Virus record (IMG/VR): IMGVR_UViG_3300033182_001497
Location: 3,213 to 67,212 of that record
From: a virus
Length of the DNA: 64,000 bases
Reading direction: 5' to 3' (one strand)
The stretch's first letter is position 1. Every line of letters starts with the position of its first letter. The translations under genes and the position numbers were made by a program. This document shows, one piece after another, positions 2,358-61,779 of this stretch. The notes under the pieces are model-generated. The model did no database searches, was not told where the DNA came from, and was given only the letters and a program-made list of their open reading frames with translations.

Positions 2358-2364
2358 ATTACAC
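2358..2364 (-). promoter_or_regulatory. GTGTAAT putative late-promoter motif, 7 nt before ATG 2350
   Basis: Minus strand GTGTAAT-AAATAAG-ATG. Confidence 0.6.
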
Positions 2365-2373
2365 AGAATATGT

Positions 2374-2763
2374 TTAAAATGATATTTCGTCAGTGAATGC
2401 TTCGGGGCCGCTGTTATATCTCCAATGATTACTTCTGAGTTCAAGGTCATTTTCATTTCTTAGTATCCACATTGGGTCTGCTATATGTTTTGCGTTACTT
2501 GGGACTATATCGCCTTCCGAGTCAAGTTCAAATGCTTCTTCTAATGTATATCTTTGCTGTGTGTAGGTATCTTGTATTAAGTTTAGTATGTCTGGGTTAC
2601 CGGTAAAATAATCCAAGAAGTTGATGCCGCTAATTGTTAGAGTTGTTGGTACATGAACTGAATCTCCATCCAGTTCCAATTGCGGTTGTAATGGATTGTC
2701 TCCAATAACATACCTACTAGGACCAACTTTTTGAATTGGCTCTCTTAATCTACTAAATTCCAT
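2374..2763 (-). CDS. Hypothetical protein
   Basis: 129-aa ORF coupled by a 1-nt overlap to the upstream ORF. Confidence 0.6.
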   Translation of the reverse strand: MEFSRLREPIQKVGPSRYVIGDNPLQPQLELDGDSVHVPTTLTISGINFLDYFTGNPDILNLIQDTYTQQRYTLEEAFELDSEGDIVPSNAKHIADPMWILRNENDLELRSNHWRYNSGPEAFTDEISF

Positions 2764-3698
2764 TATTCAATGATTACATCAGATGTTCCAGTTTGTTTGT
2801 ATGTGATAGTATATTTCATTGTAAAGCCTGATATTGTGTGTGGTCTTTTTACATATATTTTTCTTGCTTCATCACTATCAATACGGACAGATGTATCTGG
2901 ATTGAGATACATTATATTATTGTTTTCTGGATCTTCTGTTCGATTCGCATCGTAACTTTCATCGATTGTATGAAATTGTATAGGATACGGCGACTCATTA
3001 AACAATAAAACACTTTCTGCTAATCCAAGATCATATAATGTAGTAAAATCTTTTAATTCATATGAATTTATTAAACTAGCTCTTTCATTGTCAAAGCGCA
3101 AGGCGTATGCTGTATCAGTATGAAATGTTCCATCTTGTTGTACGCCGCGATTTGGATCTGCGTCTTCTGCTAATATAAAATAATTTGGATGCCCTGTTTC
3201 TGGAACACTTGGGTTGGTGCGACCATTGGCGTAATGAGTATTGTAGATGTCATCCATAATGAATCGATCTACGCCGTATGTGTTTCCTGAGTATGTACCA
3301 AAGCGTTCTTCGTCTGGAATGTTTTCCATTAAGATAAAATCTTCCTCTATCTTTTGGTTTACAGTTTTTGTGATGAGTTTCCATGGTTGTATGTCAACTC
3401 GATCAATGTTTATTACTGCGCCGCTTTGATTAGCTATACCAGAGGATATGCTTGAAAGTAGCCCTGATACTTCTACTCCCCCAAATCCTCCACTTATAAC
3501 TCCACTAAGCCCAGAGATAAGGTCATTTAAGTTTCCTATATCTACCGATCCGCCGCCACCAACTCCGCCACCAGCAGAAGGTTCCCAGCGACCATCACCA
3601 CTATTCCAGTTGTAAGTAAAGACCGGACTAGGTGATAAGTGGTCTAACTTGGTTATATCCGTATACAACGGATTGTTTTTAAATCCTGGATTTGACAT
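2763..3698 (-). CDS. Hypothetical, probably virion-associated protein with Gly-rich linker
   Basis: 311-aa ORF, GGGVGGGG linker, preceded by the GTGTAAT motif. Confidence 0.6.
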   Translation of the reverse strand: MSNPGFKNNPLYTDITKLDHLSPSPVFTYNWNSGDGRWEPSAGGGVGGGGSVDIGNLNDLISGLSGVISGGFGGVEVSGLLSSISSGIANQSGAVINIDRVDIQPWKLITKTVNQKIEEDFILMENIPDEERFGTYSGNTYGVDRFIMDDIYNTHYANGRTNPSVPETGHPNYFILAEDADPNRGVQQDGTFHTDTAYALRFDNERASLINSYELKDFTTLYDLGLAESVLLFNESPYPIQFHTIDESYDANRTEDPENNNIMYLNPDTSVRIDSDEARKIYVKRPHTISGFTMKYTITYKQTGTSDVIIE

Positions 3699-3708
3699 CG
3701 CAGGAATT

Positions 3709-3715
3709 ATTACAC
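3709..3715 (-). promoter_or_regulatory. GTGTAAT putative late-promoter motif, 10 nt before ATG 3698
   Basis: Minus strand GTGTAAT-AATTCCTGCG-ATG. Confidence 0.55.
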
Positions 3716-3721
3716 TTTTTT

Positions 3722-4066
3722 TTAGCCTCTATCCTGCGGATGTTTTAATCCGCGGCGTTTTTTACTGTATTCTTGAAAGTATTTCTTTTGAACAGGGTCG
3801 TAGCCAAGTTTGTCTTTGCGTTTTTGGCTCATTTCTTTGCTGTGATCCATGATATCACCGTATGTGCCTTTTTTGTTCCCAGTGTTGTTTACAAAAGCTT
3901 TGTTATCAAATGGGTCTGTTTGTGAATCGATGCTTGCCTGAGGGCTATAGAACACACGCTTCCATTGCACACCTTTCTCATCAACATATACATGTTCTTC
4001 TTTCATTGATTGAACCACATCTATTGTTTCAGATGTTACTGGATGTTCGTATGTATAAAGCGGCAT
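3722..4066 (-). CDS. FmdB-like small protein lacking the Zn-ribbon cysteines
   Basis: MPLYTYEHP...MKE...WKRVF..P matches the FmdB N-terminal pattern, but without CxxC. Confidence 0.55.
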   Translation of the reverse strand: MPLYTYEHPVTSETIDVVQSMKEEHVYVDEKGVQWKRVFYSPQASIDSQTDPFDNKAFVNNTGNKKGTYGDIMDHSKEMSQKRKDKLGYDPVQKKYFQEYSKKRRGLKHPQDRG

Positions 4067-5124
4067 TAGTTTAATATTTTATTTAATGTATTTACATAAG
4101 TGAATTTTTCTTTTAATTTTTCACCTTCTGTATTGTTTATCTTACATTTTGTTTCTGCTTTTTCCATAGCATCAATCAATTGTTCTTCTGAGAATGTATA
4201 TATATTGCCTTGATTAAAGTCTGTATTTTCGTGAAAGAAAATATTGTCGTATACAGGTTCAGTTCCTTCTGGCTCGACAAGTATACTATTTTCGTTTGTT
4301 GCCCAGTCTTTGTGACTTGTTGCGTTTAAAACGATACTCCATTTGCCAAGACACGTGGCGTTGAACGAGGGAAGGTTCCATCCTTCTGCGCCACTCATGC
4401 CACCGAGATCGATGTCGATTGAATTTAAAAAATCATTTACTTGACTATTTTGCGGCAAGAACGGAAGGAAATTAATGTTTCCATATTTTTGTCCGCCAAG
4501 CATGTTTCCAATGACGGATTCCATTTGTTCTTTTTTAAAGAATGGATTGGTGATGCAACATGTTAGTTGGTAATCATAGTTGTTGCCATATTTTTTGATC
4601 CATGCTTTTACTATTTTTTCTGTGTGTTTACGCTTTTCGAATTTGCCCATCAATCCAAAATGAATTTTATTGGGCATGTATGCCTTTCCTGTTTTGTGGA
4701 ATGTTTCGTCGAATCCAAGGGGAGCGGAGTGTCCGTTTTCGAATTTATCGGCGGCATAACTACTGCTAAAGACAACTCTATCTTGAAGCGCGGCGAGCTT
4801 TTGCTCTGCTTCGGTTGGTTGATCAAGTTCGTAGAATGTATATAGTGTTTGATTTGCGGTGACTCGATGTTCAGATCCATTGAGATGCCACATCTGAAGA
4901 GTTGGGATATCTCTATCAAGTTTTGAATATCTTTGCTTCGCTGATTCTTCAAGCCAATTCTTGAAGTCTTGATCCGTCAAGTCAAAGCTGCTGACATCTA
5001 TTTTTCCAATCGGAAAGATTGCAACATCATAGCCTTCACCGTACATCGCTTTGAGTAGATTGTAGGATACATTGCCAAACGACAATGAATTGAGCGGGCC
5101 TTTATAAATTAGTTTTTTCATCAA
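4066..5124 (-). CDS. Glycosyltransferase, GT-B / GT4-like
   Basis: GKFEKRK and AEGWNLPSFNA (E-x7 donor-binding motif). Confidence 0.8.
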   Translation of the reverse strand: MMKKLIYKGPLNSLSFGNVSYNLLKAMYGEGYDVAIFPIGKIDVSSFDLTDQDFKNWLEESAKQRYSKLDRDIPTLQMWHLNGSEHRVTANQTLYTFYELDQPTEAEQKLAALQDRVVFSSSYAADKFENGHSAPLGFDETFHKTGKAYMPNKIHFGLMGKFEKRKHTEKIVKAWIKKYGNNYDYQLTCCITNPFFKKEQMESVIGNMLGGQKYGNINFLPFLPQNSQVNDFLNSIDIDLGGMSGAEGWNLPSFNATCLGKWSIVLNATSHKDWATNENSILVEPEGTEPVYDNIFFHENTDFNQGNIYTFSEEQLIDAMEKAETKCKINNTEGEKLKEKFTYVNTLNKILN

Positions 5125-60894: not shown

Positions 60895-60900
60895 TATAAT
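60872..60900 (+). promoter_or_regulatory. Sigma70-type promoter for the tRNA pair
   Basis: TTGATA-N17-TATAAT, 7 nt before tRNA-Thr G1. Confidence 0.65.
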
Positions 60901-60907
60901 ATTTACA

Positions 60908-60982
60908 GGCTCCATAGTTTAGTCGGCAAAACACGTAACTTGTAATTATGAATCATCGGTTCGATTCCGATTGGAGCCTCCA
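60908..60982 (+). tRNA. trnT: tRNA-Thr(UGU)
   Basis: GGCTCCA/TGGAGCC stem, anticodon loop CT-TGT-AA, GGTTCGATTCC T-arm, encoded CCA. Confidence 0.95.
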
Positions 60983-60987
60983 TTTCA

Positions 60988-61081
60988 GGAGAGGTGGCTG
61001 AGTTGGCTTAAGGCGGCGGTTTGCTAAACCGTTGAAGGGCTTATTTCCCTTCCGCAGGTTCGAATCCTGTCCTCTCCGCCA
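60988..61081 (+). tRNA. trnS: tRNA-Ser(GCU)
   Basis: GGAGAGG stem, anticodon loop TT-GCT-AA, long variable arm GAAGGG/CCCTTC, encoded CCA. Confidence 0.95.
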
Positions 61082-61765
61082 TTATTTGCGTCTCCTGCAG
61101 CTATCCTTGTTTAAACTCCTGAAGTTCTCAGTTAAAGCGTGACAGTTAGGACATAAAACTTCTAAATTAGATTCTTTTGAGTTTTGGGGATTTCCATCGA
61201 TGTGATTTATTTCTAATGGAACTTTATTTGTTTTTTGATTAATTTTACTCCATCCGCATTTTGAACACTTACAGTTTGATTTTTTTATTAAATAATTTCT
61301 TATAAACTGTTTTATTTGATAAGTCTTACCGCTGTAACCCACAAGCTCGCCATTCTTCCACTTTTGAATATTTTGTTGTTTCTTGTATTCTGAACTGCAT
61401 TTATTGCAACAGAATTTATTTTTAGAATTCCTTTTTTTATTGAAGTGTTTAGAACAATTCAAGCATATCACTTGCTCTTGTATCTTATTTTTATTATTAT
61501 ATTTTGCAGAACATGATTTAGAGCAGAAATGGTTTTTTGATTTTTTAATATCACATTCTCTTTTCTCGATTGTTTTTTCGCACTCCTCACACTTCAACTT
61601 TTTTCTTTTGCGTTTATTTTGATACAAACACTCCCTTGAGCAATATTTTGCGGACTTGGTGCCTTTCTTTACTCTGCTTGCTAAGCTTTTCGATATAAAA
61701 AACTGTTCTTGGCAGTTTTCACAAATTCTTGGGATATTTTTTGTACTTGTTTTCTCATTTCTCAT
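61082..61765 (-). CDS. Free-standing HNH endonuclease with repeated CxxC...CxxxC zinc-finger modules
   Basis: CSKCGW...LEINHIDGNP.N...NLEVLCPNCH; three N-terminal Cys-repeat units. Confidence 0.9.
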   Translation of the reverse strand: MRNEKTSTKNIPRICENCQEQFFISKSLASRVKKGTKSAKYCSRECLYQNKRKRKKLKCEECEKTIEKRECDIKKSKNHFCSKSCSAKYNNKNKIQEQVICLNCSKHFNKKRNSKNKFCCNKCSSEYKKQQNIQKWKNGELVGYSGKTYQIKQFIRNYLIKKSNCKCSKCGWSKINQKTNKVPLEINHIDGNPQNSKESNLEVLCPNCHALTENFRSLNKDSCRRRK

Positions 61766-61772
61766 ATATTAT

Positions 61773-61779
61773 ATTACAC
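61773..61779 (-). promoter_or_regulatory. GTGTAAT motif 7 nt before the HNH ATG
   Basis: GTGTAAT-AATATAT-ATG. Confidence 0.6.

Follow-up and report, generated by a model that had tools for sequence, protein, structure and literature searches.

The heptamer GTGTAWW (W, A or T), which recurs just upstream of start codons in the genome of an uncultured phage, very probably marks a promoter class of its own, and a 198-amino-acid (aa) sigma factor encoded by the same phage is likely to be the protein that reads it. The stretch analyzed, called the window below, comprises 64,000 nucleotides (nt) corresponding to bases 3213–67212 of the 76,331-bp IMG/VR virus record IMGVR_UViG_3300033182_001497, which derives from marine or estuarine metagenomes; coordinates are window positions unless marked “genome”. 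The phage is a tailed one, and the window encodes sheath-like, tube-like, tape measure, gpJ-like tip, and fibre-like proteins. A preliminary description of this sequence had proposed GTGTAWW as the promoter motif of the late genes and had inferred that it is recognized by the phage sigma factor.

Position and conservation of the GTGTAWW motif

Twelve copies of GTGTAWW had been reported just upstream of start codons, six of them with a spacing of exactly 7 nt. All 12 were found at the positions in question, each on the strand of its downstream gene, and the exact spacing was confirmed for the six (Table 1). The accompanying caveat that the raw count is no evidence was justified, since the window contains 26 copies in total against 34.5 expected by shuffling. 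Position had been named as the evidence instead, and the check for positional enrichment, run on the genome and on its relatives, detected enrichment in both. According to a simple open reading frame (ORF) model, intergenic DNA makes up 3.8% of the genome. In the hexamer analysis, 10 of the 21 copies of GTGTAA fell into the 4.4% of the DNA counted as intergenic (p = 3.4e-9), making it the most intergenic-enriched hexamer of the genome; TTGACA and TATAAT are likewise among the intergenic-enriched hexamers. When 29 words of matched composition served as the background, a deliberately conservative choice, the spacing of 7–8 nt to start codons was also significant genome-wide (p = 1.4e-8).

The relatives were represented by 47 viral contigs recovered via the sigma protein (806 kb in total, 5.4% intergenic), the nucleotide identity of which to this genome is at most 65–74%, with none for some contigs. 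GTGTAA was again the top intergenic hexamer, with 108 of 247 copies located between genes versus 13 expected (p = 4.5e-69). When the distance from the end of the motif to the first start of a long ORF was determined in the relative loci and the genome, it peaked at 7 nt (n = 55), 8 nt (n = 22), and 10 nt (n = 29). In the same analysis, flat or weakly peaked distributions were obtained with five variants of the motif that differ in one base and with its reverse complement, ATGTAWW showing a weaker peak at 7 nt. Comparison of orthologous sites at 65–75% nucleotide identity revealed that the motif is kept within variable flanks: it was present at 7 nt from the sheath gene in 21 of 22 orthologous loci and was retained in all 29 loci orthologous to the site at 3709. 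Chance as an explanation was ruled out by the intergenic enrichment in the genome and the 47 loci, the spacing peaks, and the matched-word test. Inside genes, GTGTAWW occurs at observed-to-expected ratios of 0.45 (sense) and 0.38 (antisense) relative to the dinucleotide expectation, but at only 0.87 and 0.81 relative to a maximal-order Markov model, which leaves its avoidance in coding sequences ambiguous.

The earlier proposal of a second promoter class beside TTGACA-N17-TATAAT was strengthened by the observation that the motif takes the place of TATAAT relative to start codons. At least 10 of the genome's own sigma70-type promoters (TTGACA-N17-TATAAT) end 6–9 nt before an ATG, and the family-wide spacing of TATAAT peaks at 6 nt before starts. 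The position of the sigma70-type promoters suggests that leaderless mRNAs are the rule in this phage, and the distance to starts that the motif shares with TATAAT suggests that GTGTAWW fills the −10 slot of leaderless or short-leader mRNAs. At the sites located 19–27 nt upstream of the start codon, AAGG ribosome-binding boxes were found in the predicted leader, while the sites at 7–8 nt have none.

These distances are also relevant to a role of the motif at the RNA level, where it could substitute for a ribosome-binding site or serve as an endonuclease processing site before start codons. The 7-nt distance is the usual Shine–Dalgarno position, and several sites lie within co-directional arrays, so that read-through RNA would include the motif. 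However, the motif is not complementary to the usual 3′ end of 16S rRNA, AAGG boxes are used where leaders exist, most intra-operon genes lack the motif, and the sites 19–27 nt upstream are too distant for such a function. Moreover, no upstream transcript is present at divergent junctions or after a terminator, and thus we regard an RNA-level role as very improbable.

The divergent junctions are informative for the promoter reading as well. In three divergent intergenic regions of 27–42 nt, the only conserved content is two outward-facing copies of the motif, 5, 15, and 16 nt apart, respectively. Since each of these junctions needs two promoters and holds nothing conserved but a motif pair, the motif itself appears to be the promoter element. 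It is true that such pairs form inverted repeats as preferred by dimeric regulators, and that a gene adjoining the sigma operon (3722–4066, encoding a 114-aa protein with a weak “transcriptional regulator” match in PHROG) would be a candidate for a phage regulator using GTGTAWW as operator or activator site. Nevertheless, single half-sites predominate, the pairs differ in spacing (5, 15, and 16 nt), and the start codon follows at a fixed 7–8 nt, which is the distance of the −10 slot. As no other core promoter is present on which a regulator could act, this explanation seems improbable.

Regarding the structure of the putative promoter, the absence of a visible −35 consensus, noted in the preliminary description, held for the larger sample: none of the upstream positions exceeded 0.15 bits in 109 non-redundant sites, and 4-mer enrichment in the same sites gave nothing but terminator stems. 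Information is confined to GTGTA and the next A/T, and the bases that would complete a sigma70 hexamer are unconserved. Considering these results, we are highly confident that GTGTAWW represents a promoter class.

The phage sigma factor and its probable link to the motif

The assignment of the ORF at 5489–6085 as a sigma factor was corroborated by Pfam, profile searches, an AlphaFold2 (AF2) model, and Foldseek, all placing it in the sigma70 family. The Pfam Sigma70_r2 match scored 26.2 bits (cut-off 24), phrog_351 was also hit, and the family profile aligned with region 2 of RpoD/SigA structures of the Protein Data Bank (PDB) at E values between 1.7e-7 and 1e-5, its KFSTY being placed on the KFSTY of sigma70. 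Region 4 gave only a weak match by hidden Markov model (7.2 bits). In the AF2 model (pLDDT 81), helices 7–98 and 122–197 flank a disordered segment (104–122), and the best 50 Foldseek matches in the PDB were all sigma factors, including sigma32, SigH, sigmaE, sigmaS, and WhiG. Judged from sequence and model, the 198-aa product is a true member of the sigma70 family with two domains, and it is predicted to bind the core polymerase. Within the family, 26 positions do not vary down to 33% identity; KFST, N84, CLN, N95, and S.Q..IN.HN in the sigma4 helix are among them. No variation was seen either in KFST..N....CLN..N, the stretch that putatively reads the DNA.

The sigma gene was said to be under a sigma70 promoter, and indeed it belongs to an operon located behind TTGACA-N17-TATGAT, which comprises a 98-aa gene, the genes of a dNMP kinase, the sigma factor, SSB, and a glycosyltransferase, and a 114-aa gene. 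The same promoter–sigma operon arrangement was found in two relatives (L029 and L039). No anti-sigma gene was recognized in the sigma operon by Pfam and PHROG scans. The sigma family is large, with 2,787 clusters at 50% identity, 298 of which were retrieved at E ≤ 1e-30, while tblastn with the sigma protein against 50,697 cultured-phage records gave no match.

The association of the two elements was followed across the family. Among the loci with the sigma gene, those extending over structural genes show the motif pattern as a rule, with one exception (L027). Loci in which the sigma factor is only 33–36% identical and the GC content is 27–30% still contain 6–10 motif sites per 20 kb, and more distant carriers found by profile search are patterned as well, so that the pattern spans sigma identities of 33–38% and GC contents of 27–31% with little or no nucleotide similarity. 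When contigs were seeded with the sheath gene instead (n = 3), both of the two searchable records proved to carry the sigma gene elsewhere on the contig. Wherever a contig with the pattern could be searched, it contained the sigma, down to 33% identity. No motif at 7–10 nt from a start was detected in Phage NCTB (41 kb) or phiEco32 (20 kb), unrelated controls taken from the sigma-negative collection. A switch of specificity was not observed, as all informative distant sigma clusters use the same word and offer no sigma–motif co-variation to exploit. This co-occurrence suggests that the phage sigma is the reader of the motif, which we consider likely.

The host's own sigma factors should also be considered as readers. 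The primary sigma could use GTG + TAWWWW as an extended −10 element, or a host alternative sigma could recognize the motif, and the phage sigma would be dispensable in either case. Extended −10 promoters need no −35, which agrees with the absent −35 box. On the other hand, the information is held by GTGTA, the position of the invariant T of the hexamer is occupied by T in only 43% of 92 sites, and the TG is shifted by one base from its register in an extended −10 element. An invariant GTG next to a variable final hexamer position is not accounted for by such a reading. The near-perfect TTGACA-N17-TATAAT promoters on other genes indicate two promoter classes, and to our knowledge none of the well-known consensus sequences of host alternative sigmas (sigma28, 32, E, 54) resembles GTGTAA. 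Recognition by a host sigma alone is therefore judged unlikely.

Several observations weigh against a phage-specific promoter class read by the phage sigma. Four of the genome's own sites read GTG-TAATAT, which contains a passable sigma70 −10 hexamer with the key T, A, and T and as such favors the host sigma. The recognition helix of sigma4 is invariant although a −35 element is not evident. The sheath gene is not preceded by the motif in the relatives L027 and L030, both of which carry the sigma gene (the intergenic spacer is gone at this position in L030, and the genes overlap in L027). No related phage free of the sigma gene was found, even by sheath seeding, and the sigma factor and the motif could both be mere lineage traits. 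Leaderless GUG starts are predicted at two of the six 7-nt sites of the window; leaderless GUG mRNAs are poorly translated in E. coli and accepted in mycobacteria. Contigs from RNA libraries (four runs, compared with 41001–61000) turned out to be assemblies from relatives 90–95% identical to this phage, with unmarked 5′ ends. They cover parts of the window, including 41345–44598, where they show presence of RNA, and their depth is highest on the 433-aa tube gene and, elsewhere, on the transfer-messenger RNA (tmRNA). Neither of the contig ends tagged by adapters (43223 and 43323) coincides with a motif site.

Individual sites and genomic context

The sites and the related features are listed in Table 1. 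Among the gene labels given earlier to the motif-bearing units, the protease and the HNH gene were retained, while the lipoprotein had to be reassigned to the gene starting at 59260 and the hypothetical protein to the gene at 59534–59902.

Table 1. Positions of GTGTAWW copies, their variants, and the sigma-related features (window coordinates unless marked “genome”)
Feature	Position	Strand	Distance to start codon	Downstream gene or remark
GTGTAAT	2358–2364	-	7 nt, ATG 2350	861-aa sheath-like gene; predicted leaderless
GTGTAAT	3709–3715	-	10 nt, ATG 3698	311-aa gene, then 129-aa gene
GTGTATA	26922–26928	-	22 nt, GTG 26899	1541-aa gpJ-like tail protein (Pfam Phage-tail_3)
GTGTATT	39148–39154	-	27 nt, ATG 39120	1996-aa tape measure (Pfam PhageMin_Tail); AAGG boxes in leader
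GTGTATA	41286–41292	-	23 nt, ATG 41262	95-aa gene heading 273- and 328-aa genes
GTGTAAA	41308–41314	+	7 nt, ATG 41322	heads operon of 159-, 218-, 283-, and 433-aa genes
GTGTAAT	46176–46182	-	7 nt, GTG 46168	494-aa gene
GTGTAAT	46199–46205	+	5 nt, TTG 46211, or 14 nt, ATG 46220	heads 470-aa and 580-aa fibre-like genes
GTGTATA	59234–59240	-	7 nt, ATG 59226	papain-like peptidase (Peptidase_C1)
GTGTAAT	59246–59252	+	7 nt, GTG 59260	89-aa lipoprotein
GTGTATA	59922–59928	-	19 nt, ATG 59902	122-aa hypothetical protein
GTGTAAT	61773–61779	-	7 nt, ATG 61765	HNH endonuclease
GTGTATA, extra copy	52450–52456	+	10 nt, ATG 52467	intragenic; 72-aa ORF
Intragenic copy, high score	22365–22371	-	91 nt	next co-oriented gene
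Intragenic copy, high score	27372	-	85 nt	next co-oriented gene
Intragenic copy, high score	47520	+	98 nt	next co-oriented gene
ATGTAAA variant	43281–43287	+	34 nt	433-aa tube-like gene
ATGTAAA variant	genome 693 (outside window)		7 nt, ATG	454-aa minor-head-like gene
Phage sigma factor, 198 aa	5489–6085	-		sigma2, disordered linker, sigma4; proposed reader of the motif
sigma70-type promoter TTGACA-N17-TATGAT	6936–6964	-	6 nt, ATG 6929	sigma operon

The product of the 861-aa gene was recognized as sheath-like by its match to PHROG 15433 (E = 6e-47) and by tblastn to phiKZ-type sheaths. The site at 3709 has the top position weight matrix (PWM) score of the genome (18.4). A TCCTG box lies between this motif and its ATG (3699–3708, minus strand) and is kept in most of the 29 orthologous loci. 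The leader behind the site at 26922 contains the Shine–Dalgarno-like box AAGGAAAA. The copies at 41286 and 41308 form a divergent pair 15 nt apart, and the plus-strand operon ends with its tube-like 433-aa gene at a terminator near 44682. A second divergent pair is formed by the copies at 46176 and 46199, separated by 16 nt; the 580-aa protein encoded behind the latter has H-lectin and tail-fibre matches.

At the third junction, the peptidase and lipoprotein genes (58288–59529) are divergent, each behind its own copy of the motif, with no more than 5 nt between the copies. The product of the gene at 59260 has a signal peptide with a lipobox ending in LMTSC, and an alternative in-frame ATG of the peptidase gene is located at 59232, 1 nt from the motif. 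The pair may constitute a lysis module, and judging from the short distance the promoters at 59234 and 59246 could not be occupied simultaneously.

Three further sites lie beyond the window at genome positions 2124 (plus strand), 74556, and 75414 (both minus strand), with a spacing of 7–8 nt; the first is located 5 nt after a −21 kcal/mol terminator. The extra copy at 52450 lies in an operon driven by sigma70, within the gene before the 72-aa ORF, and its function is uncertain. The high-scoring intragenic copies at 22365, 27372, and 47520 may be internal promoters with longer leaders, the first one preceding a 2121-aa fibre gene. As suggested by the two ATGTAAA variants, position 1 of the motif may tolerate A, as it does in phiEco32.

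Close cultured relatives of the phage were not found by megablast of 10 kb against the 50,697 phage records, and tblastn with the sheath in the cultured-phage collection retrieved only phiKZ-type sheaths with 27–34% identity. In cellular assemblies, the sigma factor was found only on contigs of metagenome-assembled genomes (MAGs) of unrelated phyla (Coraliomargarita, Halobacteriovorax, Flavobacteriales, and Thermodesulfobacteriota), and these contigs appear to be phage sequences assigned to the wrong bins. The nearest MAG carrier, L051, has a 68% identical sigma and belongs to a Coraliomargarita (Opitutales) bin; the others are L052–L057. Host assignment from the MAG bins was rejected because the bins span unrelated phyla. 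TTGACA/TATAAT promoters argue against a Bacteroidota host. A block of sugar/lipopolysaccharide (LPS)-type enzymes with sigma70-type promoters (7037–15284, plus strand; HAD and nucleotidyl transferase, WavE-like, GT1, and GT9) suggests a Gram-negative host with a modified surface glycan. The window also contains a full-length tmRNA gene (51375–51743, plus strand; Rfam RF00023, 142.5 bits) with a tag peptide ending in ALAA according to ARAGORN; it has the top depth of the RNA-library contigs (up to ~1800) and might help to identify the host. A TTGATA-N17-TATAAT promoter immediately precedes the genes of tRNA-Thr(TGT) and tRNA-Ser(GCT) (60872–61081, plus strand). The ORFs scanned included none for a phage-encoded RNA polymerase.

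Proposed mechanism and comparison with known systems

Based on its sequence features, we propose that GTGTA(A/T)(A/T), with an occasional A at position 1, is likely to serve as the sole recognition element in a class of promoters specific to the phage and read by its sigma. The host's RNA polymerase, carrying its primary sigma, would use the TTGACA-N17-TATAAT promoters, one of which would drive the sigma operon. The phage sigma would then displace the host sigma on the core, its sigma2 domain reading GTGTA at approximately −14 to −10 without sequence-specific contact at −35. Transcription would start 7–8 nt downstream of the motif, the exact +1 being deduced from the spacing. In about half of the units, the start point would coincide with the start codon, giving a leaderless mRNA, while in the others it would be the 5′ end of a 12–20-nt leader with an AAGG ribosome-binding site. 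The units served in this way would encode the sheath, tube, tape measure, gpJ-like tip, fibres, the peptidase and lipoprotein, the HNH protein, and endonuclease VII. These structural, lysis-like, and packaging-type functions suggest that the class is probably late.

A more far-reaching and quite tentative possibility is that promoter, start point, and start codon form one unit of ~17 nt, GTGTAAW-N7-AUG. Messages beginning with AUG, and thereby open to leaderless translation, would arise only from transcripts initiated by the phage sigma, read-through RNA of these genes from the early operon upstream would be silent for want of a ribosome-binding site, and the recognition of TGTA would have arisen independently of phiEco32. 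If so, transcription and translation would both enforce the timing in a very abundant marine lineage of uncultured phages.

Phage sigmas with one-box promoters are known from few cultured phages, namely T4, phiEco32, and 7-11. With the system proposed here, the principle would also hold for a very large lineage of uncultured aquatic phages with a distinct sigma family and a different word, and the design would be unusual in that promoter and start codon are fused and many messages have almost no leader. The motif could be used for annotating promoters and transcription units and for fixing the true start codons in thousands of metagenomic phage contigs. The compact and probably orthogonal sigma–promoter pair would be easy to test in vitro, and it offers a natural system for the leaderless translation of late phage genes.

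With its ~200 aa and its sigma2 and sigma4 domains, the phage protein resembles the extracytoplasmic function (ECF, group 4) sigmas, and sigmaE and AlgU were among its structural matches. Promoters of ECF sigmas consist of two parts, a strong −35 element of the GGAAC type and a −10 element of the CGT type; in contrast, no −35 is seen here, and the best sequence matches were to region 2 of primary sigmas. In T4 late transcription, the gp55 sigma, which lacks sigma4, recognizes TATAAATA at −10 together with gp33 and the gp45 clamp. The common features are a phage sigma-family protein, a single −10-type element without −35, and the service of structural genes that are late in T4 and presumably late here. 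Unlike gp55, the present sigma has a conserved sigma4-like C-terminal domain, and its putative motif is GTGTAA, not TATAAATA. T4 late mRNAs are not typically leaderless, unlike those predicted here, and no member of the gp55 family was detected in the Pfam or PHROG scans. The cascade like that of T4 gp55 suggested in the preliminary description was thus supported as far as the two promoter classes and the sigma gene behind a sigma70-type promoter are concerned, but the retained sigma4 domain makes gp55 a weaker analogue than phiEco32 gp36.

The middle/late promoters of phiEco32 contain AATGTA centred at −11.5, where gp36 stacks on −12T and forms hydrogen bonds with −11G (PMC12276001); the consensus sequences tAATGTAtA for phiEco32 and TGATGT for phage 7-11 were obtained by computation (PMC4331800). 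Sequence relationship between the present sigma and gp36 was not detectable (hhalign of the family alignment: probability 0.1%, E = 0.56), and tblastn with the sigma in the phage collection containing phiEco32 gave no match. No counterpart of the phiEco32 co-factor gp79 was identified, no search aimed at one having been made. The words also differ (GTGTAA vs. AATGTA), the present phage is marine and uncultured, and the copy of the phiEco32 gene-26 promoter lies 40 nt upstream, unlike the motif described here, which abuts start codons. The likeness lies in the overall design: as judged from the sequence, both systems have a small phage sigma of two domains (sigma2-like and sigma4-like) that is made early and serves structural genes, and a one-box promoter whose TGTA core falls at about −12 to −9, with G in place of the A that sigma70 requires and without a clear −35 consensus. 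If transcription starts at the start codon or one base before it, TGTA would be placed at −13 to −10 or −12 to −9, which is essentially its position in phiEco32. Salmonella phage 7-11, which is related to phiEco32 and not to the present family and has the predicted motif TGATGT(TATA), provides a similar case: its phage-sigma class was inferred by computation, the core is of the TG.TGT type, and early promoters of the host type are set apart from later ones of the phage type (PMC4331800), while the phage described here has a different motif and promoters fused to the start codons.

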